This document shows positions 37,478 through 64,000 of a stretch of DNA of 64,000 nt, piece after piece. The notes below the pieces were generated by a model. That model searched no databases. It had not been told where the DNA came from and worked only from the letters and a program-made list of their open reading frames with translations. How positions within the stretch are numbered: the stretch's first letter is position 1; the number at the start of each line of letters is the position of its first letter. This DNA comes from Planctomycetota bacterium (GTDB taxonomy: Bacteria > Planctomycetota > Planctomycetia > Pirellulales > UBA1268), in contig QWPN01000032.1 of assembly GCA_003671185.1 (NCBI GenBank), positions 15,805 to 79,804 of the forward strand. Direction: 5' to 3'. The translations under genes and the position numbers were made by a program.

Positions 37478-37550
37478 GGCCCCATCGTCTAGAGGCCTAG
37501 GACATCGCCCTTTCACGGCGGTAACCGGGGTTCGAATCCCCGTGGGGTCA
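37478..37550 (+). tRNA. tRNA-Glu (anticodon UUC)
   Basis: 73-nt cloverleaf: acceptor stem GGCCCCA/TGGGGTC plus discriminator A, D-arm GTCTAGAGGCCTAGGAC, anticodon loop CTTTCAC, and T-arm GGGGTTCGAATCCCC. CCA is not encoded. Confidence 0.95.
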
Positions 37551-40427: not shown

Positions 40428-40943
40428 TCAGGAACCGGGCTTCGCGCCGCCACCTGGAAAAAAGTTGAACGCCTGGGCACTGGCCGCCTGCGCCGCCGCC
40501 ACGGCGGCGGCCAGTTCGGCGACGTCGCGCACCGTGACCCAATCGAGGAGCCCGTCGCGCCACACCAGTTCCTCGGGACCGACGTCACCACTCGCCACGA
40601 GCTGCTGGAGCGTCCCCGTGTCTGCCGTCGTCTCCTGCTGGGCCCCGTGCACCGTGTAATGCCACACGAAACCGTCGTTCACCGGGGCTGGAGCCGCGGC
40701 CGGCGTGGCGCTGGTGGTCGTGGTGGACGGCGCGGGTGCGGCGACGGCTGCCCCGACGATGTCCGGGCAGTCGGCCAGCGGCACCCAACTCTGACGATCC
40801 GTCGAAACCTTGTCCGATCGGGCCGCCCTGCCTCGATGCAGCATGCCCCGCAGTTGCTGTGCACTGAAGGGGCCGCTGATCTTGGTCTGCTGTCGCAGGT
40901 AGTACATGTTCACGGCGAGCCTCCGGCCCGCCCTCCCGGTCAT
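40428..40943 (-). CDS. Double GYF_2(DUF4339)-like domain protein (array B, gene 5)
   Basis: The ATG at 40943 forms an ATGA overlap with the upstream stop; an alternative ATG is at 40907 (MYYLRQQ...). There are two repeats of the pattern [WY]-Y-x-n-G-x-n-L-x-n-W-V-x-V/L: MYYLRQQTKISGPFSAQQLRGML...QSWVPLADCPDI and WHYTVHGAQQ...LQQLVASGDVGPEELVWRDGLLDWVTVRDVAEL. Confidence 0.6.
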   Translation of the reverse strand: MTGRAGRRLAVNMYYLRQQTKISGPFSAQQLRGMLHRGRAARSDKVSTDRQSWVPLADCPDIVGAAVAAPAPSTTTTSATPAAAPAPVNDGFVWHYTVHGAQQETTADTGTLQQLVASGDVGPEELVWRDGLLDWVTVRDVAELAAAVAAAQAASAQAFNFFPGGGAKPGS

Positions 40944-42943
40944 TGTGTCGGCGATTGCAACATCACTTCGATCTCGTGGATCGCCGCCACCTCGTCGGGC
41001 GCCACACGACGCCGCACACTGCCGCCCAGCAGCGCATCCACCGTCGCACACTTGTCCATGGAGGCCTTGTCCCGCAGCGAATGGAGTCGCTGGAGGAGGC
41101 TCCTGGCGCGCTGTGCGTCCTTGCCGGCCAACGCCGCGTCGGCCTCGCCGCGAATCGTGGCCAGTTCCTCCTTGAAGGCCTGTGTGGCGGCCTCGCGGAA
41201 CTCGTTCTCGAGTTCCTTTTGCGCGTCGCCTCCGGCCACGATTTCACTCTCTTCCTTCTTCAGCGCATGGCGTGACTCGACGCAGTCTTCCGGCGGTACC
41301 TTGGCGGCACGGTCGCCCTGTCCCACGCGATGGCCCGGGTCACCACCCAGCGATCGCGCTACGCGCCACGCCTTGGCCGCGGCCGGCACGTCGTCCGGCC
41401 AGGCTTCGAGCCGCTGCAGTCCCGTGCGTTCCGTGAGCTTTCGTCTCGCCGTCTCCACGTTGGCGGCATGACGTGCCAACGCTTCCTGCACCTGCCCGCG
41501 CCGTTCACGTTCCTCGTCGACGGCGACACCGATTTCCTCGATCAACAGCGCGATTTTCTCATCCGCCGCATACGCGGACGCGACCTCGGCCACGAACTTC
41601 GGCGGTTCCACGAAATTGCCCGCCTGCGCCTGATGAAGGGTTTTTTCCAACCTCGCCCTGTCTTTCTCCAATTGCTGCGAACGTCGAGCCCCGAACATGA
41701 ACAGCCCGATCGCCAGGACCGCCATCACCACCCCGGCCACGACGGCTCCGAGCAGCATCGTGTGCCGGCGGGCTCCTCGGGCCCGCACCTCGGCCAGAGC
41801 CTCCTCGACGCGGACACGGAGCGGCTCCGGGTAGGCCAGGTCCGGCACTTCTTGGCACAGCCTCGCCACCTCGTCCTGCCGTTCGGCCACACTGTCGAGC
41901 CAGGCCGTCTCCACCTTCCAGTGCGGGAGCCGCTCGACGTGCTGCTCCAGTTGTTCGCAGGCATGCGCAAACCGGCTCGCCGTGTCGTCCCTCGTGTCCT
42001 GCTCGCCAAGCCAGTCGAGCACCGGCTGTGTTCGCGCCGGGAGCACGTCGAACCGGCCGAACAGCCCCTCGTCGCGGACGAGGGCGGCGACGTTGGGACT
42101 CTCGGCAAGCGCGGCACGGCAGCCGGCGGCTTCGTCGCGGGTCTCCTCCCAGCGCTGCCGCAACCGTCTGGCCTCGTCCACCATCTCCAGGGTGGGCGGC
42201 TGCAGCACCGCCCTGGCATACCAGGCCTCGAGCGCCGCGGCCGCTGCCTCGCCCTCGGTCACCACGTCCCGCAGCCGCAACCAGGCATCGGCTCCCCGAG
42301 TGGCACGCACGTATTCCTTGGGCACCGGCACCGTCCATCCGCTGGCCGTCAGTTCGTCGTGCAAGGTGGCTATGGCCGCGGGGTCGCGGGCCGCCAGCGC
42401 CTGCCGCACGGCGTCTTTCAGCTCCCCATGACGCACCTGTTCGTGGGCCGCGATCAACTCAGCCCACACCGGCTTCGTGGGATCGAGTTCGCCGAGCTTC
42501 CGCAGCACCGCCAGCCGCCGACCGAGCGGCGCCCGTTCGAGGGTCATGCGCCGCAACTTGTCCAGGGTTCGGCTCAACGGCTCGAGTTCCGAGTGCGCCG
42601 ATTCCAACGCCGAGAGCGTGTCGAAATCGACCGCCGGCGGCGGACCGATGCCCTCGCTGGCGAAGTATTGCTCGACCTGGGGCCACGTAGCTCGGTCCTG
42701 GAGATTGAGCCGGGCGGCGAGCGCCGGAAACTCGGGGTCGTGCAACGCGATGGCCTCGTCGCGAAGGCCCTCGAACAGCAATGCCTCCACCTCCCCCAGC
42801 GCGGCGTTGACCGCGTCGACCGTCTCGTGCAGGTTGGGGAGCAGGTCCCGGATCGCCACCAGCCCCTGCTCGTCGTGCCGCGCCATGGCGGTATCGATCG
42901 CGTTGACGAGCTTGGATAGGTCCTGGAGTCGCGTGAACGGCAT
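40940..42943 (-). CDS. Hypothetical all-helical protein with one central TM helix (array B, gene 4; 667 aa)
   Basis: GAGGAA SD. The sequence is predicted helical/coiled-coil-rich (by eye), with the TM helix MLLGAVVAGVVMAVLAIGLFMF at about aa 395-416. No known motif. Confidence 0.65.
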   Translation of the reverse strand: MPFTRLQDLSKLVNAIDTAMARHDEQGLVAIRDLLPNLHETVDAVNAALGEVEALLFEGLRDEAIALHDPEFPALAARLNLQDRATWPQVEQYFASEGIGPPPAVDFDTLSALESAHSELEPLSRTLDKLRRMTLERAPLGRRLAVLRKLGELDPTKPVWAELIAAHEQVRHGELKDAVRQALAARDPAAIATLHDELTASGWTVPVPKEYVRATRGADAWLRLRDVVTEGEAAAAALEAWYARAVLQPPTLEMVDEARRLRQRWEETRDEAAGCRAALAESPNVAALVRDEGLFGRFDVLPARTQPVLDWLGEQDTRDDTASRFAHACEQLEQHVERLPHWKVETAWLDSVAERQDEVARLCQEVPDLAYPEPLRVRVEEALAEVRARGARRHTMLLGAVVAGVVMAVLAIGLFMFGARRSQQLEKDRARLEKTLHQAQAGNFVEPPKFVAEVASAYAADEKIALLIEEIGVAVDEERERRGQVQEALARHAANVETARRKLTERTGLQRLEAWPDDVPAAAKAWRVARSLGGDPGHRVGQGDRAAKVPPEDCVESRHALKKEESEIVAGGDAQKELENEFREAATQAFKEELATIRGEADAALAGKDAQRARSLLQRLHSLRDKASMDKCATVDALLGGSVRRRVAPDEVAAIHEIEVMLQSPTQ

Positions 42944-42958
42944 GATCTCGGTTCCTCG

Positions 42959-44797
42959 CTAACGCGGCGCCGCGCCGGATGCATCGTCGGCCGCGGCAGT
43001 GGTGTGGGATCGGTGCCGCGCGAACGACACGAGCACGCTGCGGCCGATTCCGGGAAAACTTGCGCCCAGGTCACCGCTGAACGCTGCATCGCCGGCTCCG
43101 ATATCCTTCAAGAGCTGCTGGGCGGCCCGCTTGCCGTCCGGAACGGCGTCCAGTTCCTCGAGCATGCAGCAGAGGGCGACTTCGGTCGCCTCCTCCCGGT
43201 GTGCAGCCAGATCAGCCTGCAGGTGGCTCCAGTATGCACTGGTATCGGCATGTCCGTCCGCGATCTCCCGTCGTCCGTCGGCGCTCGCCTGCCAGGCCCG
43301 ATATCCGGGCGTTTCCCGCAGCAGCTCCCTGAACCTATCCTTCCACATGGCCAATGGGAGCGCCTCCTCGGGGCTCAATTTCTGCAGGCACTCGTGCAGT
43401 GCCCGCGGCGCTCCCGGCACCTGCAAGCGGTAACGCCGCACGACGTCGGCGAACTGCGCGATGGCGCCGATACCCGCTCGGTCGGCTTGGGGAACCCGGG
43501 CCTGCACCACGTCTGCGAATGCGTGCGGTTCGGGAAGCACAGCCAGCCCCGACCGCTCTTGGCCCGCATTTTGGACGTCCGCCAGACGGCGATACGAGTC
43601 CCAGGGATCGAGCACCCGAGACGAAGTCAGCCTGAACGGAAGTTCGAGCCGCTCACCGGACGAGAGCGGACCGCTCGGCCCCAGCGTCAGCGTGGTCTCC
43701 ATGAACGGCTGGCCCGTGGCGCCGGCCCACGCCCAGAGCAACGTGCATCCGGGCGGTTCGGCGCCGGGCTGGAGCCGTCCGGCATGGGGCGAAGCCGACG
43801 ATGACGAAGAGCCGCACGTCCCGTCGAGCCTCAGATCGACCACCCAGGGGCTGACCGGCACCTCGACGTGCAACAGGGGCTTCCCGCCGGCGGACGCGTC
43901 CACACGCAACGCCTCATCAAAAAAGAATCGCTTCACGTGCAGGGGACCGTGCTCGACGGGACGGCCCAATTGGACGTGGGTTTCCTGCCCCTCATGTCCT
44001 GCCGCGGAGATGGCGATCACCGTGCTGGCCAGCGCCTCCCGGGCCCGCCACTGCTCGACGTGCCCCGGCACAGTGACCGACTCGCGGACGTCGATCCACG
44101 CCGTCAGCATGCCACGCTCCACGGCGGCACCACCGCAACGCCGATCGCGGCCCGCCGTGACGCTCACAAACGTCCAGGACTGGTCGCCGTCGGGTCGGCA
44201 TTCGAGCACCGAAGGCGGACCGTCCGGGAGCAACTGCACCTTTTCGGCCGGGAGCCGCAGCGAGATGGGCACGTTGCCCACGGTGCACAGTTCCCCGCGC
44301 TGCCGCCGCGGATCACCGCCGTCGAGCCCCTGCAGCGGAAGGTGGCGGTTGTGCTGCAGTTCGGTGCCGATGGCAGCAAAATGCGAGACCGCCGCCGGTG
44401 CGGCACGCCGGCCATCGCCATCGGCACGCCGGCCGTCGCCTTCGGCGTGGGCGGCCGTGCCGTGAGACCGCATGGTGGAGCCGGCCCGGGAGCGTTTCGG
44501 GGCCCCCGCCGACATGTCGGTGCCGATCACCAGCGCGGCGATGCCACCGGCCACGAGACAACCGGCCACCGCCGCCAGGGCGAAGATGGTCTCGTTGCGA
44601 CGCATCTTTCGCCACTTTCGCGGCCGGGACAAACTCGCAGTTACCGCGTTCTGCTCGGCGGCAGTGGCGGCGGCAGCGGCGGCCGCCGGGGCGATTGCCG
44701 GCGGACGGACCGGTGCTCGACCTGGCACGGGCGCGGGCCGAGACGCCCCCGGTAGCGAGGGCGGCTTTGGCGGTGGCGGTGGATCCCGAAACGGCAT
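42959..44797 (-). CDS. Hypothetical Pro-rich single-pass TM protein, paralogue of the C-terminal half of the upstream gene (array B, gene 3; 612 aa)
   Basis: N-terminus MPFRDPPPPPKPPSLPG and TM helix IFALAAVAGCLVAGGIAALVI. The ~500-aa C-terminal region aligns by eye with 44814..~46350 (HLPLQGLDGG/HLPIQGLDSG; THVQLGRPVEHGPLHVKRFFFDEALR/THVQLCRPTAGGPIVVEQFFFDDKLR; AYWSHL...VALCC[ML]LEELD). Confidence 0.7.
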   Translation of the reverse strand: MPFRDPPPPPKPPSLPGASRPAPVPGRAPVRPPAIAPAAAAAAATAAEQNAVTASLSRPRKWRKMRRNETIFALAAVAGCLVAGGIAALVIGTDMSAGAPKRSRAGSTMRSHGTAAHAEGDGRRADGDGRRAAPAAVSHFAAIGTELQHNRHLPLQGLDGGDPRRQRGELCTVGNVPISLRLPAEKVQLLPDGPPSVLECRPDGDQSWTFVSVTAGRDRRCGGAAVERGMLTAWIDVRESVTVPGHVEQWRAREALASTVIAISAAGHEGQETHVQLGRPVEHGPLHVKRFFFDEALRVDASAGGKPLLHVEVPVSPWVVDLRLDGTCGSSSSSASPHAGRLQPGAEPPGCTLLWAWAGATGQPFMETTLTLGPSGPLSSGERLELPFRLTSSRVLDPWDSYRRLADVQNAGQERSGLAVLPEPHAFADVVQARVPQADRAGIGAIAQFADVVRRYRLQVPGAPRALHECLQKLSPEEALPLAMWKDRFRELLRETPGYRAWQASADGRREIADGHADTSAYWSHLQADLAAHREEATEVALCCMLEELDAVPDGKRAAQQLLKDIGAGDAAFSGDLGASFPGIGRSVLVSFARHRSHTTAAADDASGAAPR

Positions 44798-44813
44798 GGA
44801 ACGAATCCTGTCC

Positions 44814-47768
44814 TCAACGATCGACCGGCGGAGGCACGTCGAGCCTGTCCTCGATGGCGGGTGCGGCGGGGCGCTGAACTTTTGGCTTGTCGCGTTGGGC
44901 GGTCGGCTCCGGCTTTCTCGCGCTCACAAAGGTCGGGGGCTTGTCGCCAAGGACCAGAAGCACGCAGTTCCGTCCGTTTCCGAAGTCGATGGCGACGTCG
45001 CCACGAAACTCGGCATCGCCCTCGCCGAGCGCTTCGATCAGGCTCCTGGCCTGCTGTTTGAGCGGTGGCAGCATGTCCAGTTCCTCGAGCAGGCAGCACA
45101 GCGCCACGTCGGGGTGCGTGGTCTTGGTCCGGTCTTGCCCGGACTTGAGATGCGACCAGTATGCCGCGATGTCTCGCGGCGTTGGGGGACCTGAAGGCAC
45201 ATCCTGGTTCGCACCTCGGGCCGCAGTCGCGGTCCAATCCCGATATTCCGCCGACTCTGCCAACGCGCCGCGAATCCGCTCCTTCCACAGCGACACGGGT
45301 TGCTGGCCCTGCATTTCGATCTGTCCGAGGTCGAGCGGGGCCTTGGGATACTGCCGGCACACCTTGGTGCTGAATTTCTTGATGAGGTCGAAATCGACTT
45401 CGTCGTGGTCCGAGTCCGCCGGCACTTCGACGCCGATTTTCAGCAGGCTGACCCTCGGCAACTGGTGCAACGGGATCCGCGGCGGGACGGCCTGGTTGAG
45501 GTCCGCGCAGAAGCGGAACGTGTTCCACGGTTCCAGGACGTCGGACGACTGCAGCCAGAATTGGGTGTCGCATGGATCACTGTCCGTCGCCGGCACCTCT
45601 TTGTTGGCGAGTTGCAATTCCGTCTTCATCACGGGCTTGCCGGCGGGTGTCGACCATTCGATCGTCCAACTGGCGGGGGAGTTGAGCGCGGCGGAAGGAT
45701 ACCCTGCCCCTGACGTCGTGATTCTCCCCGCCAGTCCCCCGGGCACGCTCGTCCCCTCGAAACGCACCTGACATTGCCAGGGGGTCGAGGGCAGAGAGGC
45801 TCCCAGAAACAGTTTCACGGGGGTGTGCTTGAGCGATTGCGGCCGCAGTTTGTCATCGAAAAAAAACTGCTCGACCACGATTGGCCCGCCAGCGGTCGGA
45901 CGACACAACTGCACGTGCGTCGTCTGTTGGGGATGCTCCTCATCGGCCAGGATCACGATCGCGGTCGCCACCGCTGCCCGGGCGCCGAGATGTTCGCTGA
46001 ACCGCGGATCGTTGGGGGCGACCCGCTGATTCAGCGTGGCGCACACGGTATCGTCACGGATCGCCAGACGGCCAACTTCTATGGGCTCCGGAGCGACCGC
46101 GGCTCCGACTCGCGAACAGAGGATCCTCCAGTCGCCCTCCGCTGTCGGCACACACGACACTCGCGACTGCGGGCCGTTTGGTGCCAGGTTGAGCACGGCA
46201 TCCGGCAACTGCGGCCTGACCCTGGCGCCGTGCAGAGCGCACAGCCGTGCCGTCTGCTCCTGGAGAATGCCGCTGTCGAGTCCCTGGATGGGCAGATGCT
46301 CGGCGCTGTCGAGCGCTGAGCAGAGCTTGGGAAACGCGTCGACCGCTGGGGGAGCAGGCCGGGGCGGCCCGGGCGGCAGCGGCGGCGGTGGCGGTGGCGG
46401 TGGCGGTGGTGATGGTGAGGTGCGGCGGTCGATCGGCAAGCCGTCAGCCGACCGGGATGATGAATCGGCCACCACATCGGGACCGCCGACGACGAGGGGC
46501 GGCGGCACGGAAGACGGCTGAGCCACGATTGGCGCTCGTCCACCGCGGTCGGTTGCCAGTTCTGTTGGCGAAGGATTTCTTGGCCTCTCCGTCTCGCCGC
46601 TGGCGCCGGGGCGTCTCGAATTCGTGCGCGGCGGTGTCCCGGCGTCGCGCAATCCCATGAATCGCGTGCGCACACCGGGCACGACCAGGGCGATGAGTGC
46701 CACGATCACCGCCGTTGCCAGGGCGACCACGACGAGGGGCACCCATGACCGCCGTTGCCCCCGCTCCGCCCCCTCCGGTGCCGGCACGGCGGCGCGGGGC
46801 TGGCGAGCGGCGGTCGTGGAAAATGCGAACGGATTGGCGAGTGGCGGCGGAGCTCCAGGACGACCGGCCGCGATGCGTGGCGGCCTTCCGGGAGCGGCGG
46901 CCGCAGCGGCGCCGACGGCTGCGACCGCCCCGCCCCCACTCGCCGTTCCGGCCGGCAGCGCCTGCCACGGCACTTGTGCCTTTCCGCGAGCGGCGTCGAC
47001 CAGCGCCGATGCAGCCGTGAGCGGCGGCTTGCGGACGAGATCGACGACCGCGACCCGCGACTGCCCGCGGGCTGCCTGTGCTTCCGGCGAGCCATCCACG
47101 GTCCCCAGCCAGAGCATGTCGGGCTGCCCGACCGCGTACGTCGTGAACGTCACGCCCCAGCGCTGCGCGGGCGGCACGAGCGACAGGGCCTCCGCGAAGA
47201 GTTCGATGAGTTCGCAGTCTGCGGCGGCGATGATCCAGGTCTGTTCCCGACGCAGCGCCCGCTCGACGATGACACCCGCCCAACCGGCGTCACCCGCAAC
47301 ACGCGCCCAGGCATTGCATGGCTTCGGCTCGCACGCCGGCGCGGGTGGGGCGATCGTAGGCGCGGGTTGCTCGCGGGGCTGGCCCGACCATCGCCGCAGC
47401 AATCCGCCGGCATGATCGAGGGCCATCAGTACGCTGGCCGGACTCGACATGGCCCGCGCCGACACCTCGCCGCCGTCAAGCGCCAGATGATGGGCCAGCT
47501 TGTTGGAGCGGCCATCGTAGCCATTGCCCGCGTCGACGATGCTGCTGAGCACGGACATTTGGCCCGCCGGCGACTGAAGGAGCGCGTGGGACAGGATGCG
47601 GGGGTTCCGCGCGTCCCCCTGCGGGTACACGTGGCGGTAGGCGCTGCCCTGTTCCAATTTCGACTGCAGTTCGGGATGAATGCCTCGCGTCCGCAGCACG
47701 GTGGTGAAACCACTGCGGCCGGCCTGCAGGCCCCGCGCGGCGCTGGTGACCACGAGTTCGTGGATCAT
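44814..47768 (-). CDS. GAP1-like (GTPase-associated) single-pass TM protein, 984 aa (array B, gene 2)
   Basis: The ATG at 47768 (MIHELVVTSAARGLQAGRSGFTTVL...) forms an ATGA overlap with the GTPase stop. It has a ~330-aa N-terminal module, an Ala/Pro linker, the TM helix WVPLVVVALATAVIVALIALVV, a Pro10 tract, and the shared ~500-aa C-terminal domain. The GAP1 assignment rests on recollection of the family N-terminus and was not searched. Confidence 0.6.
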   Translation of the reverse strand: MIHELVVTSAARGLQAGRSGFTTVLRTRGIHPELQSKLEQGSAYRHVYPQGDARNPRILSHALLQSPAGQMSVLSSIVDAGNGYDGRSNKLAHHLALDGGEVSARAMSSPASVLMALDHAGGLLRRWSGQPREQPAPTIAPPAPACEPKPCNAWARVAGDAGWAGVIVERALRREQTWIIAAADCELIELFAEALSLVPPAQRWGVTFTTYAVGQPDMLWLGTVDGSPEAQAARGQSRVAVVDLVRKPPLTAASALVDAARGKAQVPWQALPAGTASGGGAVAAVGAAAAAAPGRPPRIAAGRPGAPPPLANPFAFSTTAARQPRAAVPAPEGAERGQRRSWVPLVVVALATAVIVALIALVVPGVRTRFMGLRDAGTPPRTNSRRPGASGETERPRNPSPTELATDRGGRAPIVAQPSSVPPPLVVGGPDVVADSSSRSADGLPIDRRTSPSPPPPPPPPPPLPPGPPRPAPPAVDAFPKLCSALDSAEHLPIQGLDSGILQEQTARLCALHGARVRPQLPDAVLNLAPNGPQSRVSCVPTAEGDWRILCSRVGAAVAPEPIEVGRLAIRDDTVCATLNQRVAPNDPRFSEHLGARAAVATAIVILADEEHPQQTTHVQLCRPTAGGPIVVEQFFFDDKLRPQSLKHTPVKLFLGASLPSTPWQCQVRFEGTSVPGGLAGRITTSGAGYPSAALNSPASWTIEWSTPAGKPVMKTELQLANKEVPATDSDPCDTQFWLQSSDVLEPWNTFRFCADLNQAVPPRIPLHQLPRVSLLKIGVEVPADSDHDEVDFDLIKKFSTKVCRQYPKAPLDLGQIEMQGQQPVSLWKERIRGALAESAEYRDWTATAARGANQDVPSGPPTPRDIAAYWSHLKSGQDRTKTTHPDVALCCLLEELDMLPPLKQQARSLIEALGEGDAEFRGDVAIDFGNGRNCVLLVLGDKPPTFVSARKPEPTAQRDKPKVQRPAAPAIEDRLDVPPPVDR
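46380..46409 (-). repeat. Pro10 tract encoded by a (CGGTGG)n hexanucleotide tandem repeat
   Basis: The plus strand reads cgg cgg tgg cgg tgg cgg tgg cgg tgg, which equals 10 consecutive Pro codons on the minus strand, within SPSPPPPPPPPPPLPPGPPRPAPP. Confidence 0.85.
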
Positions 47769-49087
47769 GGGGATTCCCCACCCCCTGCCTCGACCGCCGG
47801 TTTCGCCGCGTCCGCCGCAGCGGACCGCGGCACGCCGTGCGGAATGATGGCGGCCGAGCCACTGCCGAACTGGCTGAGCGCATAGAGCATGGGCACCTCG
47901 GCCCACATCGGGTTGATGGATCCGGCACGGTGCCAGTAGCCGTTGTCGGGGCCGCGCTGCGGCGGACCGCCCGTGGCACTGACCGGCACGTAGACGATCC
48001 TGCTCGGCTCGACGAAGCTCTCCGCCGTGGCCACGACCGCCGGCATGTACTCGTGCAGCATCTGGCGGATCGCGGCCGAAGCCCCCTGGATCATGTCGGG
48101 CCGCAGGACAGCGAAGCCGCCCGTCGGGTGCATGGTCCAGGGATCGGGCAGCCGCTCCCGGCCCAGGAGTTTCTGCCAGGCGTCGTATTTGTTCACCAGC
48201 ACGAGCAACGGCCGGTCGTGACGGGCATTCACCGCCAGGCCACGGTATGACTTGACGCGGCGGGCGACTTCCGCGAGCAACACTTCCTGCCGGCTGAGCA
48301 CCGCCGGATCGCGGACCTGCTCGTCCTCGGATATGTTCTGCAGGTGCTTGCGGAACTCGGGTTCCTGTGCCGGGTCATAGACGAACATCAGGCAATTCGA
48401 TTTCGCCAGATGCTGCGTCACGGGGTTGTCGGGCCGGTCGGCCCCGGGCTGGAAACTCTCGCCGGCGTTGTCGTAGACGCAGAGCGTGCGGGCCACGGAG
48501 GCGGGCTTGGCGGCATAGGGGTGTGAGCCAACCGGGCTGATCTGGAAGAAGAACGGCTTCGGGTAGAGGATCCGCTTCTCGCCGTAGGTCACCTCGTGAT
48601 ACCAGTCGCCGGTCACGTCGGTCTTCTTGAGATGCACGAGATCGTCGGGTTTGCCGTGCGCGAACAGTTCGTCCTCGTACTCGTGCAGCACCGCGTTGGC
48701 CTGCGGATCGGCATCGCTGAAGTCGATGGCAAACGACTTGGGGAGCAGTTTGCGCAGCCTGTGGATCATCGACGCCAACAGGTAGGACTTGCCGCTCTTG
48801 GGCGAGCCGAAGACCGACGCGAAGAACGCCGGCCGCTCCAGGAACACCCGCGGCACACCCAGATGACAACGCGGGCATGCGAGTTCGTGGCAGGGAGCAC
48901 CCTTGGCGTCCAAAGCCCGGCCTTCCGGATCGAAACGCGTGGGCGGAAAGCGCCGCCGTTCGTTCGGCCCCAGCCGCAGGTCACCGAACAGGTCGTGGTG
49001 CGATGACACATACCACACCCGCTCCGGCGGAAACCGCTCCCAGCAGTTGGGGCAGGTCACTTCCTTGACGAGGCTGGTGTGCTGCAT
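47765..49087 (-). CDS. Zn-ribbon + Ras-like (TRAFAC) GTPase (array B, gene 1)
   Basis: N-terminal CPNC...CPRC motif. G1 GSPKSGKS, G3 VYDNAGE, G4 LVNKYD, G5 VSATG. Confidence 0.8.
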   Translation of the reverse strand: MQHTSLVKEVTCPNCWERFPPERVWYVSSHHDLFGDLRLGPNERRRFPPTRFDPEGRALDAKGAPCHELACPRCHLGVPRVFLERPAFFASVFGSPKSGKSYLLASMIHRLRKLLPKSFAIDFSDADPQANAVLHEYEDELFAHGKPDDLVHLKKTDVTGDWYHEVTYGEKRILYPKPFFFQISPVGSHPYAAKPASVARTLCVYDNAGESFQPGADRPDNPVTQHLAKSNCLMFVYDPAQEPEFRKHLQNISEDEQVRDPAVLSRQEVLLAEVARRVKSYRGLAVNARHDRPLLVLVNKYDAWQKLLGRERLPDPWTMHPTGGFAVLRPDMIQGASAAIRQMLHEYMPAVVATAESFVEPSRIVYVPVSATGGPPQRGPDNGYWHRAGSINPMWAEVPMLYALSQFGSGSAAIIPHGVPRSAAADAAKPAVEAGGGESP

Positions 49088-49353
49088 GGTGGCGCTAGTG
49101 ATCGCGACTCCGGCAGGGACTCAGGCTGTGGGCAGCACCGGTTCGGGCGGTGCCCCGCCCGACGGCCCGGCGGCGTCACGTCCCTCCCTCAAAAGTATGG
49201 ACAGTCGGCATAACCCGCAACCCCCGCACCTGACGGATGGGGATGAAGCCGGGCCGCGGTTTGACCGATCACCGAAAGCGGGCTAGGGTTCCCGAGAGTC
49301 TGCCGTCGGCCTCCCAGACGGACCGTCCCGAACTCCAGCCCGGAGGGCTTTCC

Positions 49354-49908
49354 ATGCGTTCCGCCCGCTCTGCGATTCTGTGCGCGTTGCTCTTGGCCGC
49401 CGCGACCACGGTGCGGGGCGAACCGATCACCCCTGCCATCGCCGATTGGGCCCTGCAGAACGCCGCCGACATCACATCCAGACTGCGGGCCAAACTGGCG
49501 GAGTACGACGAGGATGGCGGTGAACTCAAAGGCTTGGTCGACGTCAACGCCCCCGGATGGAACATTTACAACCGCGACCGGCAACTGCTGATCGCCATCC
49601 CCGTGAAGAAGAACCTGCTGTTTGCCAGCAAGAAGACCGGCGAAACGAACGCCGCCGCACTGGCCCGCAGCATCATCCAGCAGATCAACACCATCCCCCT
49701 GCAAGCCGACAACGAGACGGCTCGCCTCGACGACAACGCGGTTCGCGTGGTGTTCATCGAGCCGGCCGTGGCCGACATCCGCTCCGGATCCTTTTCAGCC
49801 TCGTCCGCTACGACGGCGGCGTGGGCCGGATTCCAGCCGCCTCTCGGGTACGCTCCCTCCGGCTTCTACCCACAGGCTTCGTTCTCCAACGCCTGCGGCT
49901 GCCACTGA
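49354..49908 (+). CDS. Small secreted hypothetical protein (184 aa) wedged between the two arrays
   Basis: ATG at 49354 within ORF 49237..49908, with a GGAGGG SD. Signal peptide MRSARSAILCALLLAAATTVRG. The C-terminus ends ...NACGCH. Confidence 0.6.
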   Translation: MRSARSAILCALLLAAATTVRGEPITPAIADWALQNAADITSRLRAKLAEYDEDGGELKGLVDVNAPGWNIYNRDRQLLIAIPVKKNLLFASKKTGETNAAALARSIIQQINTIPLQADNETARLDDNAVRVVFIEPAVADIRSGSFSASSATTAAWAGFQPPLGYAPSGFYPQASFSNACGCH

Positions 49909-49923: not shown

Positions 49924-51996
49924 TCAGGGCAGGACCTTGAGCGAGTCGTACCAGAGAATGCCGGGCCCGCGGGCGTTGGTGAGCCGCTTCGAACGTTCCT
50001 GGAGGATGGCCGAAACCTCCTGCTTGACCTTGGGCGCCTTGATGGGCCCGCTCACGAACAGCACGGGGTTGCGCACACGCATTCCCATGCGGTCGCGCAG
50101 GAATGCGCCCAGCGTGCGGTCCTGCTCCGGCATCTCGCTCCAGGCCGCCTCGATGGCCGCCTTGGCCTTGGTATGCGTCGAACGCTTGGCGATCAAGTCG
50201 GCGATGAATTTCACGGCCGCCTCTCCATTGAGCCTATCGCTCCGCTCCAAGTCCTTCACCAGGGCCATGAACATCGCCTCCAGAACGTCCACCTCGACCG
50301 GTGCCAGGAAGAGCAGTTCCCGCAGTTGGGGCATCTTCACGTCAGGCTGCAGCGGGTGGAACATCCAACCGGTGGCCGGCACGTAGTACTGCTGGTTGCT
50401 GGCGGCGAACGCCGCCAGCGTGCCACCGTCGTCGACGATCCGCTGTTCCATGCCCGGCCCCGGCACGGCGTACTGGTTGCGACGCTCCAGGGCGTCGATC
50501 TCCCGGGCCAGTGCCGCCTGGCGCCGCTGCTGCTCGGCCCCGGCTTCCCGGATCCGTTGATTGAGCTGGCTCGGATCGTTGATCCCCACGTTGCCTGGCA
50601 GCACCACGCTGCCAGGCTCGCACTTGTCGGCAATCCGCTGGGCCTGCTCCGCGAACGACTTTTGATACGACCTGTCTCCTTGGCCGACCCGGATAAATAC
50701 GAGCCGCACACCGGTCTGGGCCACGAGATCGGCCACTTCGTCGACCAATTTGTCCAGTTCGGCGTCGCGCCGGCGGTCGCCGGTGTCGCCGATCACCAGC
50801 ACCAGGCGTGACGAACCGGCCGAGAACTTCGCCGCCTTGATGCCGGCGATGATGCCGTCGAGCATCAATTCCTCGGGCTGGTCCCCCTCGCCGATCGGCG
50901 CCACCTCCTTGTGGGCGGCGACCTCCGTCGCCACGGCCGCGGCCTTCTCGGCGGTGAGCTTCTCCAAGGGCCCGAGATTCTCCAGGACGGGCTTCCCCTT
51001 GCCCCAGAAATCTCGATACCACACCACCCGCATCGCCGCCCCCACGCTTTCCGTGCCTTTCAGGCCGGCGATGAAGTCGGCCACCGGCTTGAAGTACGGC
51101 TGCATGCTCAGTGTGTCGTCGACCACGAACAGCATCTCGAAGTGAGATTCCTCCCCTTGTTGCTGCTGCTGGGTCCTCTTGCGTGCCAGCACCTTCGGAT
51201 TGACAGGGCCTCCACACACGGCGCCGATATGAAGCAGCCGGTTCTCGGGCCCCAGAGGAAACGTCTGGGGGGTATCCGGCAGTTTTTGCTCTTCCGCCGG
51301 AGCGAGCTCCAGGAAGGGGGGCGCCTCGCTGATCCGGCGCGGATCCCAGCTCGTTGCCCCCTTGCGTTCGGTGATCAGCACCTTGGCCAGATTCCGATCC
51401 GCCGCCTTCTGCACCACCAGGGCGTCGTAGGCATCCTCGGCACTGGCATACAGATCAACGGGATGCTTGCGCTCCAGGTTCGTGAACGAGTAGCCGTAGC
51501 GGCTCTTGAGCAGTTCCAGCTGCTCGCCCGATGCCCAGCCCACCACGGGCGTCTGCCCGGGCCGCGGGTCCTTGACCTGGGCGTAGTCGTTCGCCAGCAG
51601 GCACCAGCCGTTACCCAGCCCGTCCCCAATCTGCGCGTAGACGTAGAGCGGCATGAACAGGGGCTGCCGGGCGACGACCGGTTCCGTGAGCGAGGGGCTG
51701 TTTCGCAACTCCAGGTGGTCGAGCTTGCGCAGGCGTTCATCGGCGCCGGGCCGGCGCACTCCCATCGCCATGCGCGGCACCACCGTGCCCTCCATGAACA
51801 GGCATTCCAGAGCCAGCGGCGACCCGTCCGGCATGACGGGGTTCGGGGCCTTGTCGGGCAGGTAGACGGCCGCGTCGTCGGCAGCCGGGCCGAGCCCGCC
51901 CCCAGCCGCCGCCGGTTGCGCGGTCGCCGGCGTCGCTCCGTGGAGCACCACGGCGATCGCGACGACCGCAGTGCAGACGGCCGAACGTATCGCCAT
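49924..51996 (-). CDS. Secreted von Willebrand factor A (vWA) domain protein, 690 aa (array A, gene 7)
   Basis: Signal peptide MAIRSAVCTAVVAIAVVLHGATPATA. MIDAS-like motif FEMLFVVDDTLSM, followed by LVLVIGDTGD. The ATG overlaps the upstream stop by 1 nt (TGATG). Confidence 0.75.
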   Translation of the reverse strand: MAIRSAVCTAVVAIAVVLHGATPATAQPAAAGGGLGPAADDAAVYLPDKAPNPVMPDGSPLALECLFMEGTVVPRMAMGVRRPGADERLRKLDHLELRNSPSLTEPVVARQPLFMPLYVYAQIGDGLGNGWCLLANDYAQVKDPRPGQTPVVGWASGEQLELLKSRYGYSFTNLERKHPVDLYASAEDAYDALVVQKAADRNLAKVLITERKGATSWDPRRISEAPPFLELAPAEEQKLPDTPQTFPLGPENRLLHIGAVCGGPVNPKVLARKRTQQQQQGEESHFEMLFVVDDTLSMQPYFKPVADFIAGLKGTESVGAAMRVVWYRDFWGKGKPVLENLGPLEKLTAEKAAAVATEVAAHKEVAPIGEGDQPEELMLDGIIAGIKAAKFSAGSSRLVLVIGDTGDRRRDAELDKLVDEVADLVAQTGVRLVFIRVGQGDRSYQKSFAEQAQRIADKCEPGSVVLPGNVGINDPSQLNQRIREAGAEQQRRQAALAREIDALERRNQYAVPGPGMEQRIVDDGGTLAAFAASNQQYYVPATGWMFHPLQPDVKMPQLRELLFLAPVEVDVLEAMFMALVKDLERSDRLNGEAAVKFIADLIAKRSTHTKAKAAIEAAWSEMPEQDRTLGAFLRDRMGMRVRNPVLFVSGPIKAPKVKQEVSAILQERSKRLTNARGPGILWYDSLKVLP

Positions 51997-53954
51997 CAGA
52001 GCGTCCGATTCAGGCTGGCTTCAACGCCCTCTGCCGGCGTCGATTCTTGGGATGGCACGGTTTCGCCCGGCACGCGGCCCGGGGCACCCGCCGCCTCGTC
52101 GTGGGCGTGTTGCATGACGTTCTCCAGGTGCAGCCGCAGTTCCGCCGCCTTCGGCGATCGCACCGTGACCTCGCCGGGCTTAACGCCGGCAGGCACGAGC
52201 CCCTGGTGCATGTATCCCGCATAGGCCGGGTCGGCATCCGGGAACAGGAACGACATCGGAGCCAACCCAGGCCCCTTCGGCGGCTCGAGGCCACGGCCCA
52301 AGATCAGGTTCCGTTCCGGCCAGATGACGATGGCCCGTAGGTCGGGGTTCTGTGCCGCCTCACGTTTCTTGCGCACCGTCTCCTCGATCCGTGCGAGCTG
52401 ACCTGTCACGTCTTCCTGATCTTCCTCGAAAGGACGGAACATCTTGTCCTTTTCCGGGCTGCCACCAGACGGGGTGAGCAGATCTTCGCCCTTGTCCTGC
52501 CGGTTGAGGATGATCGCGCCGTTGTCGTAGATCTCCGCGGCGCGGCTGGCAACCGCCTCGCGGACCTGCTCGGTGATCTTGTCGCCCGGTTCGTGCAAAC
52601 GCTCGTCGTTGACGAGGATGATGATGTAGTCGCCGGTCTTTGGCGGCCCGCACAGCGCCTTGCAGCCGCAGCCCTTTCCGCCGCCGGCACCACTGCCGGA
52701 GCCGCTTCCAGAACCCGAGCCAGAGCCGCTGCCCGAACCCGAACCGCCGCCCTCGCCTGACCCGCCACCGCCGCCGCCACCAGGTGTTGCTCGGACCTCG
52801 ACCTTCGAGCCCATCGTGCCGTCGATCCCACCGAGGTCGGCGACCGACACCGGCTCGCTTCGTACCGCACCGGCTCGGGTCCTCACGCCGACGCCACGAC
52901 CGTCGTCTCCCAGACTGATGAAATCCTCGACGTCGCGTTCCATCGGCCCATTCCGCGCCAGGAGCACGGCGCCGTCCCGCTCCAGGTGGTCGATCTGCCG
53001 GCCGTCGCGATCCAGAAAGACGAGGTTTTCATCCGGCAACGGGTCGTCGTTCGCCGCCACCAGCGTGCAGGTGCGGGGATTGTCGGGGAACAACGGATGT
53101 GGCGGCGTCTCCATCTCGAGTTCGTACACCTCGTCGGGCCCCGGTGCGTTGTCGTCCCGCAGGCCGAACTTTTGTAATTCCTCGGGGGTCAGAACGTCTT
53201 CGAGCCGCATGCTTACGCTGCGATCTCCGACGTCGAACACTCGCTCGAAATGCTTGAGCAACGACCGCGGCTCGCCCGGTGTCGCCCGATACAGGTCGAA
53301 AGCCACCGGCACCCTGGTGTTCACAGCGGAGGCCGCCGGCACTTCGACCGTTGTGGAGGCCAGATCGTGCTCCGGCACCACCACCCTCTCAGTTGCGAAC
53401 TGCACCGGGATCACGCCCTCGGGTGTCGCTTCACGCGTGTCGTCGTCGACGATCGTCACCGTGCACCAGCCGTCGTCGCCCACGGTTGCGTCGGCGGTGG
53501 GCTGCAGCTCCAGACGGAAAGTCCGCCTGCCGTCCTGGCCGGTGAATTCGTCGTCATTGACGATCGTGATGTCCGGTGTCTCGGACTTCGTCATCCGCAG
53601 CTTGCCGTCCACGGCCCCCTCGTCGAAATGCATCACGGCGCCGCTGGGGATGACGCGGAAATCGCGGTCGTGCGTCGCCGACACGTCGGTCCAGACGAGC
53701 GGCACATCCATGGCGTAGGGCGCGGGCTTCGTGAGCTTGGCGCGGAGTCGCAACAGACCGTTGACATCGGGCTCTTCAACGCTGAGGCCCTTGCCGTCGA
53801 AGGCGACCTGGAGTGCCGTGGGCGGGGCGGCAGGCGGAGGCGAGAGCACCAAAAAGCCGGTGATCGTGAGCGAGTACACCCACACCACCCACCAGCCGAA
53901 CATAGAGAGCAGCGATTGACCGTTGAACATGATCTGTTCCCCGCGTGGTGTCAC
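51996..53954 (-). CDS. N-terminally TM-anchored protein with Calx-beta-like repeats, Gly/Ser linker, Cys cluster and C-terminal alpha/beta domain (array A, gene 6)
   Basis: The GTG at 53954 forms a GTGA overlap with the upstream stop; an alternative ATG is at 53930. TM helix [19 protein letters not shown]. Calx-beta-like pattern [21 protein letters not shown]...[11 protein letters not shown]...FRLEL and TVTIVDDD. A (G/S)36 tract is followed by [10 protein letters not shown]. Confidence 0.65.
   Translation of the reverse strand: [652 protein letters not shown]
52674..52781 (-). repeat. Gly/Ser low-complexity tract (36 aa) including a near-perfect (GS)9 repeat at 52689-52745
   Basis: Translation [37 protein letters not shown], encoded by imperfect hexanucleotide repeats (gagcc/gaacc units). 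Confidence 0.85.
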
Positions 53955-54859
53955 CCGTCCCCGAACATCTTGCCGAGCCCCTCGAAATCCTGTGCTGAGA
54001 TCGATGGCAGCGCCGGCTCTGGAGCGGGTCGCGCCTGGCCGGCACCCTTGGGCGTTTCCCGCTGCGTCACCGCAGCCTGTCCCGGCGCAGACGGCCCCGA
54101 CGCGAGTGCCGCGGCCACCACCGGTCCGGTTGCAGCCGGGAGATTGGCAGCCACGAACGCCGACTGCGCGTCAAGCGGGTTGACGCTGGACGACCAACGC
54201 TGCAGCAGGCTGCGCGTCCACTGGTCGATGGCCACGATCAACAGCATCAGCAGAAGAGCCGCCGCGATGGAGAGAATCATCGGCCATGCCACGACGCCGG
54301 CGACGGATCGCTTGCCTGCCTCGACGAGGCCCTTGCTCACGTACTCACCCCAGGTATCCCAGGCGCTGATCAGGCCGAATACGGGTGCCGTGAACGCGGC
54401 GGCACAGGCCGGCCAGAGCCGCTGCCCGAGAAGGCCCCGCGCCCGCGGCGCAAACTCGGTGACGGCATTCGTGAAATCCTGATCGGTGCGGCGCAGGGCC
54501 GGCGTGTTCTGCAGCGCCGCCGCCACGAGCCGAAGCGGCCACCAGGGGTGGTCTGTGTCGCCGTCGGATTCCGGTCCCGGTCGGCGCCCGAGTGCGCCAC
54601 TCAGCCGAAACAGCGAGAGGACTCGTGGCAGAAGCGTGAACACCCCGCCGAGGGCGATGCCATACGCGGCACAAGCCCACGGCTTGAGCGATCCACCGAC
54701 ATCTTCCGATCCAGCCACCATTGGCAGGACGAGGTAGCCCAGGCCGCCGCCCACGGCGATCACGATCCATGACGCCCAAGCGGCACCACCACCGAAAACG
54801 TCCCGGACGGCCGCTGCCAGCCCGTACCCCTCGGCATCACGATCACTTCTGCCCGACAT
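53951..54859 (-). CDS. Polytopic inner-membrane protein, 302 aa (array A, gene 5)
   Basis: About 4-5 hydrophobic helices (WASWIVIAVGGGLGYLVLPMV, ACAAYGIALGGVFTLL, WPACAAAFTAPVFGLISAW, VVAWPMILSIAAALLLMLLIVAI) and an Ala/Pro-rich tail. It starts 6 bp after the upstream stop. Confidence 0.65.
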   Translation of the reverse strand: MSGRSDRDAEGYGLAAAVRDVFGGGAAWASWIVIAVGGGLGYLVLPMVAGSEDVGGSLKPWACAAYGIALGGVFTLLPRVLSLFRLSGALGRRPGPESDGDTDHPWWPLRLVAAALQNTPALRRTDQDFTNAVTEFAPRARGLLGQRLWPACAAAFTAPVFGLISAWDTWGEYVSKGLVEAGKRSVAGVVAWPMILSIAAALLLMLLIVAIDQWTRSLLQRWSSSVNPLDAQSAFVAANLPAATGPVVAAALASGPSAPGQAAVTQRETPKGAGQARPAPEPALPSISAQDFEGLGKMFGDG

Positions 54860-54865
54860 GTTCGG

Positions 54866-57800: not shown

Positions 57801-58072
57801 TCGGCGTAACTCCACGCCTCCGGCACGCCCACATGCCCCGATTCATCGACGGGCAGGAGCGTCTTCACCCGCTGCACAAGCGACTCGATAGCGGCCCGTG
57901 TCCCGCGCACGGTGACGGTCTCTTCCCGCAACCGGCGTCGGACGTCGGAATCATGGGCCAGGAGCGGCTCGGGCATGCCGACCGCGCCGTCGCCCGCCGC
58001 CTCACGGCTCGCATGCGACAGGGAAAGCAATGCCTGCCTGCGACATTCCTCGACCATCCACGTCTCGGGCAT
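54866..58072 (-). CDS. Large hypothetical cytoplasmic protein (1068 aa) with GrpE-like C-terminal tail (array A, gene 4)
   Basis: ATG at 58072. No TM segment or NTPase motif. The last ~60 aa (VVFEPVKLTDYPSEWAV...PSGNRIRKVLRPGVRTLSSSLVRPAIVETE) resemble the GrpE beta-domain (..[36 protein letters not shown]). Confidence 0.6.
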   Translation of the reverse strand: MPETWMVEECRRQALLSLSHASREAAGDGAVGMPEPLLAHDSDVRRRLREETVTVRGTRAAIESLVQRVKTLLPVDESGHVGVPEAWSYAELIGWWLQAGEALGGWSAAELKQHGTVLSPARGGLYPPFWCMRRFERLHFSFDAWQQSALTAGVPGPDWRGVGKNRRDYRLKLLKWVMLHRRPRARRPDPARQSQEWLQSLREEFAGVLQDAEEMFGSERGLETGGPLTVDTVRDWIPAWHAGKFAGGLIQEVRRPVIQSAGERATLIKGIAVLPPASFMCRRITFAGNAAVTDWRAALEFAADCWGGNALDTAAVPPPAGAWKRAGDDARAVVSPEDLDAGLVAAARLLAAIACEENRQPATDGADEAHPVSREALRIAMAFEGFSLHTTPVQVGAEGRVIPHAAPEPAGGAAKLTLRAALAIPGGPPVAWDVDVGTVGPPAACGDGLLKVIEAVDWRIWALAQAPLADHASHQRDRILAAINHRRWETVKNHVLAGTMAERGPATAGLFDYAHRARLGLQPLVAAADEAVNQHLGNRLLDNLHELGRVALAEAAASDGQATERCSPPRQADGTVHVGKWLRQRLTADADADETGLTWVMSDSPFGTVLDERLDGRGWLVVTVSAGPVEEGDIGCLNTLLPAPREIAGSGRPLRIVLAEFQGRLIESLARSSPHPLDAELPALRDRFAGADAPAFHELIDRARKGDAALIAWVDLLVSDPRFDFRCHPPLTADRRELMPPGVDDEYLAWAHDPDVPAGTDLAVTFALEPRRARRVIGHGPREPGSAADLADRLVAATANAGERLKGLATSCRAATDRRQTFGEAAAHPVTKAGPLLDALLAGHDLDADARQAVYTAASRWCAALGHEVVPAEWRAGEALPGEQFGELEVMPAFDESVPAGAFMLKRFGIRGPCGVPLEGAVSAGPAPSGFNDLRAALSELGNTPELGHTPKLGDLDKRLNELAKQAANGRLPMVVPNLFDSLWGAAEAAPGPLQAAFEPAKGHLLQLLKSSCRMVVFEPVKLTDYPSEWAVGADGKRPSGNRIRKVLRPGVRTLSSSLVRPAIVETE

Positions 58073-58110
58073 GGTGCCATCCGTTGCTGCGCTGGTTGCG
58101 CTGGTGAACG

Positions 58111-60546: not shown

Positions 60547-60576
60547 GGGACTTCCTGGCAGCTGACGCCGCCGCCC

Positions 60577-62631: not shown

Positions 62632-62680
62632 CGGTCGATTCTCCCTGTCTTCCCTGCGGGCAGCGGCCCGCGGATCGAGC

Positions 62681-63904: not shown

Positions 63905-64000
63905 CGGGTCACTCCTGGGGAATGCTGGTGGATGGGCGCTGGGATTGGTCACGGGGTGACGGCGGCGGCCGGCTGATCGGTGGGGAGGGGTCTCGACGGC

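Follow-up and report, generated by a model that had tools for sequence, protein, structure and literature searches.

Why does a predicted bacterial GTPase switch carry the same large domain twice, on two adjacent membrane proteins? The question is raised by a stretch of 64,000 nucleotides of a Planctomycetota bacterium (Pirellulales, UBA1268; GenBank assembly GCA_003671185.1, contig QWPN01000032.1, positions 15,805 to 79,804), here called the window. On its minus strand, to which all cassette coordinates refer, five closely spaced genes encode a GTPase, a protein with GAP1 modules, a transmembrane (TM) segment and a large C-terminal domain, a TM protein of 612 amino acids (aa) with the same C-terminal domain, a 667-aa TM protein and a protein with two GYF domains. 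The shared domain is named X, the two proteins bearing it GAP1-X and X2, and L and P codes denote related loci and proteins. X is by far the most variable part of an otherwise constant machine, and its probable role is that of a rapidly evolving sensing arm in a predicted conflict system. The GAP1/DO-GTPase systems are known from comparative genomics alone. The locus offers a concrete input end, a membrane-anchored ectodomain which occurs in only two architectures and evolves several-fold faster than the attached switch.

Paralogy of the two X copies

The 612-aa protein had been described in the original prediction as a tandem duplicate of the TM segment and the C-terminal part of the GAP1 protein. 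For domain X this was borne out. Residues 136-590 of X2 and 475-937 of GAP1-X were aligned by BLASTP in one collinear stretch with 147 identities in 474 columns (31%), 47% positives and 6% gaps (202 bits, E=2e-59). The peptide blocks quoted in the prediction are all present in the two proteins, and the similarity was collinear homology, not short low-complexity matches alone. In a six-frame scan of the whole window with a hidden Markov model (HMM), exactly two copies of X were found, the one fused to GAP1 (residues 475-940, 44949..46346) with 481 bits and the stand-alone one (residues 136-592, 43022..44392) with 520 bits. X2 and the C-terminal ~470 residues of GAP1-X are true paralogues.

The duplication of the TM segment could not be followed in the window. 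The TM and juxtamembrane parts of both proteins showed no significant similarity, and the homology starts after the TM and a linker. On sequence, the TM before X is here a common architecture, homology of the two TMs not being demonstrated in the window. In the distant locus L016 (2-5223), the identity between GAP1-X and its stand-alone paralogue amounts to 49% over 783 aa, a stretch that takes in the TM and a coiled-coil stalk of ~250 aa, so that the paralogy runs through the TM in this locus. The stalk length is matched between both L016 copies. A poly-Pro tract and a single TM precede X in both window proteins, as predicted, but their order differs: in X2 the tract (residues 6-13) is located N-terminal to the TM (69-95), in GAP1-X the main tract (446-470) lies between the TM (339-373) and X. 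A concentration of divergence in the middle of the domain was not detected; identity per 40 residues was patchy, between 17% and 50%, and not lowest mid-domain. In general, the pair derives from an old tandem duplication, and the window copies have diverged to 31%.

Evolutionary rates

In comparison with loci L004/L007, the identity to the window was 79% for the neighbouring ferrochelatase, 78% for an aldo-keto reductase (AKR), 69% for an alpha/beta hydrolase, 67% for the GTPase, 65% for GAP1-N/M, 48% for the GYF protein, 42% for the 667-aa protein and 25-29% for X. Within the closest pair, window and L011 (synonymous divergence, dS, ~0.4-0.7), the GTPase is 95% identical with a ratio of nonsynonymous to synonymous divergence (dN/dS) of 0.06. 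GAP1-N2 is 96% identical (dN/dS 0.05, dN 0.030), X of GAP1 64-69% (dN/dS 0.30, dN 0.22-0.23) and X of X2 79-81% (dN/dS 0.15-0.21, dN 0.10-0.13). GAP1's X has a dN ~7 times as high as GAP1-N2, to which it is joined in one protein chain, and this copy evolves 1.3-2 times faster than the X of X2. The same picture was obtained with L001.

Distribution and predicted structure of domain X

When 1.84 billion cluster representatives were searched exhaustively with a profile, only 33 clusters of the X family came up. A word-indexed homology search with X2 found seven close orthologues only. With GAP1's X it found nothing, not even the near-identical P0008 detected later by the exhaustive search; this is a limit of the index, and for proline-rich queries a negative result of the word-indexed search is not evidence of absence. 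A genome collection scanned with X motifs of the window clade (window, L001, L011 and L012) yielded no relative, and with GAP1-N motifs only two truncated contigs of metagenome-assembled genomes (MAGs). Two more loci were obtained from a metagenome scan with a 7-sequence alignment. Fifteen related loci were recovered from metagenomes and MAGs; the source labels of the relatives are 'Planctomycetia bacterium', 'Pirellulales bacterium' and, for one MAG, 'Ca. Kuenenia sp.'. The family members are either proteins of ~1,000 aa with GAP1-N2/M, TM and X or proteins of ~550-700 aa with TM and X. Furthermore, TM, long coiled coil and X are combined in some members and GYF, TM and X in one. A charged coiled-coil stalk of 60-250 residues replaces the polyproline in other members, and one member matches the Pfam TonB_N polyproline model.

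The statement that the domain has no recognisable motif agrees with the searches of Pfam, NCBIfam, PADLOC, PDB sequences and, by structure, Foldseek, none of which gave a match. For 28 family members Pfam matches were limited to the GAP1, GYF and polyproline parts, and a profile search of PDB sequences with X gave nothing meaningful. The X of X2 was modelled by AlphaFold2 with a 28-sequence alignment (pLDDT 91.1, pTM 0.86; m5d14b8f90edb), which superseded a poor earlier run with 5 sequences (pLDDT 53.6). The model begins with an N-terminal helix (5-20), goes on with a region rich in beta strands (37-266) and a bundle of helices (295-437), and is closed by a beta-hairpin (442-463). With Foldseek no match at E<=1e-3 was found in PDB or BFVD; among the weak matches the best were the tandem Ig-like sandwiches of Fab light chains. 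Having no match in the searched family, solved-structure and viral-structure libraries, X would represent a new family and may also represent a new fold.

The conserved positions of X are Trp, Pro, Gly and Cys together with one Gln, one Arg and one Lys, and no catalytic-looking motif was seen among them. Three other ideas were rejected. An internal repeat of one beta module received an hhalign probability <1%, no Pfam match at E<=10 pointed to a divergent GAP1-C or another known domain, and the two cysteines of a supposed C278-C320 disulfide do not co-occur.

The cassette as a GAP1-N2 system

GTPase-centric systems with GAP1-N2 were predicted by Kaur, Burroughs, Iyer and Aravind (eLife 2020, PMC7159879). 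The study notes planctomycete versions that have a GYF pair and a GAP1 with C-terminal TM segments attached. In the searched literature no subsequent paper on such systems was found. By its domain content the window cassette is a GAP1-N2 type system, because GAP1-N2 and GAP1-M score above the gathering thresholds, the GTPase gene is directly upstream and a GYF pair closes the operon.

The first gene (47765..49087) codes for a DO-GTPase-type TRAFAC GTPase of 440 aa with an N-terminal Cys4 zinc ribbon. Read from the sequence, its motifs are CPNC...CPRC, the Walker A motif GSPKSGKS, DNAG and NKYD. Pfam DO-GTPase2 was matched with 23.9 bits (E=3.9e-5), which is under the gathering score of 27, so that the subfamily assignment is sub-threshold. 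Its stop overlaps the start of the GAP1-X gene by 4 nt; a GAP1 gene directly downstream of the GTPase gene is expected of the GAP1-N2 subtype.

GAP1-X (44814..47768) is a single-pass membrane protein of 984 aa from ATG with GAP1-N2, GAP1-M, TM, Pro-rich stalk, X and tail. GAP1-N2 (residues 1-111, 47436..47768) was detected with Pfam PF20013 (E=6.9e-17, 62.2 bits) and GAP1-M (residues 151-245, 47034..47318) with PF20014 (E=3.5e-8, 34 bits), both with a gathering score of 24. No Pfam match to GAP1-C was found at E<=10 in residues 246-470 or in X, the presence of a GAP1-C model in the library being unconfirmed. The region after GAP1-M is of low complexity and runs into the TM helix (residues ~339-373, 46650..46754; Kyte-Doolittle 19-residue maximum 3.26). 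A (CCR)n repeat codes for the poly-Pro stalk tract (46359..46433), whose length varies between near-identical strains, as P0008, otherwise near-identical to the window GAP1, has two fewer Pro. Behind X a short C-terminal tail follows (44817..44948). Its motif ED(R/K)LDVPPP is conserved in the alignment, and even an X-deleted relative has kept this tail.

X2 (42959..44797) is a single-pass membrane protein as well, with a Pro-rich N-tail (residues 1-68, 44594..44797), a TM helix acting as predicted signal anchor (residues ~69-95, 44513..44593; Kyte-Doolittle maximum 2.47), a short linker and X. Orthologues are 64-80% identical to it, and its dN/dS is 0.20. Neither GAP1-N nor GAP1-M was found in X2 by Pfam, and the likeness to GAP1 is limited to X; judged on these comparisons, X2 is not itself a GAP1 but the paralogue of the ectodomain that is fused to one.

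The fourth gene (40940..42943) encodes the 667-aa single-pass membrane protein with a helical N-terminal part of ~390 aa, a TM and a coiled-coil-like C-terminal part of ~250 aa. Orthologues are present in L001, L002, L004, L006, L007, L012, L013 and L017, and no match was found in Pfam, NCBIfam, PADLOC or PDB sequences. GAP1-X, X2 and this protein have one strong TM segment each. The last gene (40428..40907) codes for the GYF-GYF protein of ~159 aa from the Met at 40907, a start picked by alignment to orthologues of 153-175 aa; two stretches match Pfam GYF_2 (E=2.3e-19). A GYF-pair gene was also identified in L001, L002, L004, L006, L007, L013 and L017. In L013 (5468-11158) and L004 (17175-19860) the cassette end is expanded and has three or four GYF proteins, of which some carry a fused TM2 domain. 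L013 has in addition a MotA/ExbB-family gene and two genes without assignment; the former hints at an energised link across the periplasm.

Comparison with the described systems shows several common features. As in PMC7159879, GAP1-N2 is combined with GAP1-M, GAP1 is downstream of a zinc-ribbon TRAFAC GTPase and carries a C-terminal TM, the host is a planctomycete, and a constant core stands beside a fast-evolving non-enzymatic component. In contrast, the ~470-residue ectodomain and its tandem stand-alone paralogue are not described in the available text of that paper. The window has no detectable protein with fibronectin type III (FNIII) repeats and no detectable GAP1-C, its GYF protein lacks a trypsin or TM-rich part, and the locus is chromosomally fixed and vertically inherited. 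No fn3 Pfam match was obtained in any cassette or upstream protein. X may fill the role of the FNIII component in the window cassette. Like the latter, X is proposed to be a highly variable, non-enzymatic, beta-rich sensing module, and its weak Foldseek matches are tandem Ig-like beta-sandwiches. It differs by the missing fn3 match and internal repeat, by a 140-residue helical bundle and by its membrane anchorage outside the cell.

The same paper describes effector-associated domains (EADs), where a core component and the neighbouring gene share one domain, and proposes that they recruit by homotypic contact. X resembles them by its occurrence on the GAP1 core and on the next gene of the operon. 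The EADs are, however, small cytoplasmic adaptors on enzymatic effectors, whereas X has ~470 residues and is predicted to be extracytoplasmic, X2 has no enzymatic domain and the copies of X are down to 23-31% identical. X hence shares the duplicate-copy pattern of EADs but not their definition as small adaptors on enzymes.

Topology and cytoplasmic coupling

For both proteins we infer from sequence that the N-termini are cytoplasmic and that a stalk holds X on the outer side of the cytoplasmic membrane. The GAP1-N2/M part has to be where the cytoplasmic GTPase is, X2 proteins have 6-7 Lys/Arg before the TM and 2-3 after it, and the X2 orthologue of L006 carries a GYF domain N-terminal to the TM. 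In the window X2, 7 Lys/Arg are found in the 15 residues preceding the TM and 3 after it. As a rigid Pro-rich tract between an inner-membrane anchor and an outward-facing domain, the stalk is similar to the TonB spacer, and the TonB_N match of one family member and the MotA/ExbB gene in one related locus (L013) are in line with this likeness. In contrast to TonB, X proteins have no TonB C-terminal domain and other family members have coiled-coil stalks.

GYF domains bind proline motifs; Kofler and Freund 2006 is the reference cited in PMC7159879. The full-length X2 N-termini follow the consensus M..DP..RPP.RPP.P..PPPLPP, with MPFRDPPPPPKPPSLPG in the window and ...GPPGLP in L001, and the GAP1-X proteins have G-PPP-[LIV] motifs just before the TM. 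PPP[LIVMF] was counted 23 times in 1,869 residues of cytoplasmic tails, 4 times in 2,279 residues of the similarly proline-rich outer linkers and once in 14,424 residues of X. In the X2 orthologue of L006, the GYF domain takes the place of the proline motif. Cassettes each end with one to four GYF-pair proteins. From these sequence patterns we propose the GYF-GYF protein as bivalent adaptor for proline-rich tails. Since GYF binds proline motifs, ends every cassette and is swapped into X2 of L006, an adaptor bridging the X2 tail and the GAP1 juxtamembrane part would be the simplest wiring. The X2 tail of the window, beginning MPFRDPPPPPKPPSLPG..., is a candidate GYF ligand and is predicted to be cytoplasmic. 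A wiring rule, GYF domains binding proline-rich tails, is suggested by the locus.

Proposed role of X

The reading we favour, and to which we give an even chance, is that the GAP1/GTPase switch has X as its variable arm for sensing or recognition and that GAP1-X and X2 are paralogous co-receptors linked by GYF in the cytoplasm. X would be non-enzymatic, and GAP1-X would relay a signal across the membrane to its cytoplasmic GAP1-N2/M module and the zinc-ribbon GTPase switch. X2 would act as co-receptor beside GAP1-X. The GYF-GYF protein would bring X2 into the same cytoplasmic complex by binding its proline-rich tail and the PPP-hydrophobic motifs by the GAP1 TM. The paralogy, the rarity, the confident model without matches, the conserved pairing, the unequal rates, the gene conversion and the natural X-deleted variant were shown, while the topology, the sensing role, the GYF-proline coupling and the physical association of GAP1-X and X2 are inferences.

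Several observations weigh against it. The fast divergence of X fits the diversifying recognition module suggested in the original prediction, but positive selection was not shown: pairwise dN/dS was <1 everywhere (0.15-0.30 for X), with a maximum of 0.73 in windows of 45 codons. Relaxed constraint would also yield fast divergence of X. A conserved pair, Cys171/Cys200, is no more than a possible disulfide, as several members have just one of the two cysteines. The window X2 tail is without a strict PPP-hydrophobic motif and has PPSLPG instead, and the main poly-Pro tract of the window GAP1 cannot be a GYF ligand because it is on the outer side of the TM. The chromosomal position described below is fixed, which is unusual for a mobile defence island and fits a housekeeping envelope function. 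The fused X was lost in L017 and P0038, therefore a covalent link from sensor to GAP1 is not essential. No ligand is known, and the searched literature holds no experimental data on any GAP1 system.

Pairing, loss and conversion of the two copies

The order GAP1-X followed by X2 was found in the window, L001, L002, L004/L005, L006, L007, L011, L012, L013 and L016. Of the 11 distinct loci whose neighbours are visible, 10 have retained the pair. L007 (12995-17055) has three copies of X, namely GAP1-X and two stand-alone X2 proteins (669 and 684 aa), and the identity between its X2b and GAP1's X is 67% N-terminally but only 36% C-terminally. The exception to the pairing is L017, which is ~83% identical to the window at the nucleotide level. 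In this locus (6063-9342; compare 44870..46531 of the window) GAP1 has only 471 aa: N2, M, the Pro-rich segment, TM and linker run directly into the tail ...EDKLDVPPPER. The poly-Pro tract and the entire X were deleted in frame, and X2 is intact. An independent protein, P0038 (EBR23_00230, from an NCBI MAG labelled 'Planctomycetia bacterium'), has the same junction and a further deletion of 47 aa in the Pro-rich segment before the TM. An assembly artefact was rejected, as N runs are absent and the in-frame junction recurs in a second assembly. L017 is nested within X-bearing relatives, thus the loss is a derived deletion. The GAP1-fused X is dispensable in the L017 lineage.

The relation between the two copies differed between lineages. 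In the window clade the copies within a locus are 30-31% identical, the identity at third codon positions is near background in the window and L001, and no gene conversion was found across five loci. The copies within L006 and L004 are 76-80% identical in amino acids. In L004 the nucleotide identity amounts to 93-97%, with 93-95% at third positions, over ~200 codons and then drops to ~50%. In L006 it is 86-93% over most of X and 70-84% towards the C-terminal end. Homogenised tracts in L004, L007 (GAP1-X and X2b) and P0034/P0028 cover the stalk and model residues ~1-160, and all three end near model residue 160-175, just past a VQL.RP...FFFD motif. P0034 was matched to P0028 by similarity only; downstream of P0034, its contig shows just a partial gene of 258 aa. 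In neighbour-joining trees of the N-terminal and C-terminal parts the paralogues group by lineage and not by architecture, and the topologies of the two parts differ. Judged from these alignments and trees, gene conversion, or repeated replacement, between the tandem paralogues has occurred in sister lineages, recurrently and over parts of the domain. Either selection to keep the first module matched or simple resolution where the DNA is most conserved could account for the common end-point of the tracts.

As far as the searched literature and libraries go, there is no earlier description of the X family, of its seemingly obligatory tandem arrangement, of the partial concerted evolution or of the X-deleted variant.

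The heteromeric pair considered in the original prediction is plausible, as the pair is kept in nearly all loci. An obligate heterodimer, in which GAP1-X and X2 were sub-functionalised into two non-interchangeable receptor halves that are both needed, is rather unlikely. Besides the pairing, the copies of the window clade were both maintained at ~30% identity under purifying selection, and in L016 both carry matched coiled-coil stalks. However, L017 and P0038 lost X from GAP1 cleanly and in frame with X2, GAP1-N/M, TM and tail intact. Since the copies of L006 and L004 were converted (76-80% amino-acid, 86-97% nucleotide identity), strict sub-functionalisation is not general. The three copies in L007 do not fit a two-part receptor either.

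Another question is whether the cassette belongs to a conflict system at all. It adjoins the AKR, the alpha/beta hydrolase and the ferrochelatase in the window, L004, L006, L007, L012 and L017, and from this common chromosomal place we conclude that the locus is vertically inherited. Where flanks are visible, it is located downstream of a conserved operon for proteins of ~1068, 302, 652 and 690 aa. Such a setting would suit a vertically inherited machine for envelope or membrane remodelling with X binding a component of the own envelope, e.g. peptidoglycan or an outer-membrane partner. The dynamin-like and weakly HSP70-like proteins of the upstream operon, the very strong constraint on the GTPase (dN/dS 0.06), the MotA/ExbB gene in L013 and the TonB-like stalk point in the same direction. 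A self ligand is not expected to drive X to 25-29% identity while the neighbours keep 65-79%. Changes in copy number, loss of a domain and conversion are typical of arms-race loci, and the GAP1-N2 family was defined in a conflict context (PMC7159879). This explanation is unlikely.

The conversion tracts allow a further reading, for which we see a small chance: X would be a new fold and a polymorphic self-matching module, its copies binding each other via the first beta module on the same or neighbouring cells, with the GAP1/GTPase part reading match or mismatch. Recurrent gene conversion would keep the first beta module matched while lineages diverge. If this applies, the locus would encode a bacterial receptor for kin recognition or infection alarm, wired to a GTPase, in planctomycete aggregates. 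Tandem paralogous surface receptors under concerted evolution are known, e.g. the pilE/pilS cassettes and the polymorphic TraA receptors of myxobacteria. As in those systems, adjacent paralogues of X swap part of a variable outward-facing domain, and divergence between lineages is high. Here, in contrast, only one or two partners exist, both of them full genes of the expressed type, and nothing in the data points to adhesion or kin recognition.

The near-identity of the first beta module of X2 to that of GAP1 in three comparisons is also expected if both see the same ligand. X2, consisting of an ectodomain and only a short cytoplasmic tail without a GAP1 module, could then be a decoy or threshold-setter which competes for the ligand or for GAP1-X and damps activation of the GTPase switch; multi-level thresholds are stressed for these systems by Kaur et al. 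(PMC7159879). But X2 is the only X left in L017, and intact, and its conserved N-tail motif as well as the GYF domain in L006 argue for active coupling in the cytoplasm as against a passive sink. We regard a decoy as improbable.

A donor cassette of the pilE/pilS type, with X2 rewriting the recognition module of GAP1-X by gene conversion as an arms-race switch of specificity, is still less probable. Such a role would account for recurrent, partial and lineage-specific tracts, for two stand-alone copies in L007 and for the 1.3-2 times faster evolution of GAP1's X. One or two donors provide almost no repertoire, however, and X2 is not a silent copy but a complete gene of the operon with its own TM, a conserved tail and purifying selection (dN/dS 0.15-0.21). 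Conversion is absent from the five loci of the window clade.

That X is an effector on the envelope or a neighbouring cell and not a sensor is very improbable: domains fused C-terminally to GAP1 are often effectors, e.g. SLATT, in Kaur et al. (PMC7159879), and the window cassette has no other obvious effector, its GYF protein being without the trypsin or TM2 parts seen elsewhere, but the conserved positions of X form no catalytic-looking constellation and X matched no enzyme or toxin family searched.

Genes surrounding the cassette

NCBIfam and PADLOC gave zero matches for six neighbouring proteins, searches of PDB sequences with the GTPase and the 690-aa protein found nothing, and a scan of the cassette for promoters and terminators was not informative. 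A tRNA gene (37478..37550, plus strand, Rfam 57 bits) just upstream of the ferrochelatase gene is the sole Rfam match in the window.

Between two minus-strand operons, a small open reading frame (ORF) on the plus strand (49237..49908) codes for 223 aa, or probably ~184 aa if translation begins at an internal Met, and its start resembles a signal peptide. It is kept in L004, L006, L011 and L017; in L007 no gene was called at this place. The upstream operon (49924..63952, minus strand) encodes proteins of 690, 652, 302, 1068, 811 and 713 aa. The 690-aa protein has a signal-peptide-like N-terminus and, by eye, a vWA-like DxTxS motif, with no Pfam match. A long Gly/Ser linker is present in the 652-aa protein, and the 811-aa protein has a weak, sub-threshold match to HSP70. 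The 713-aa protein matched Dynamin_N with 28.4 bits (gathering score 27). Orthologues of the operon are found in the same order in L004, L007 and L017. Because the operon directly abuts the GTPase gene in L007, it may belong to the GTPase system.

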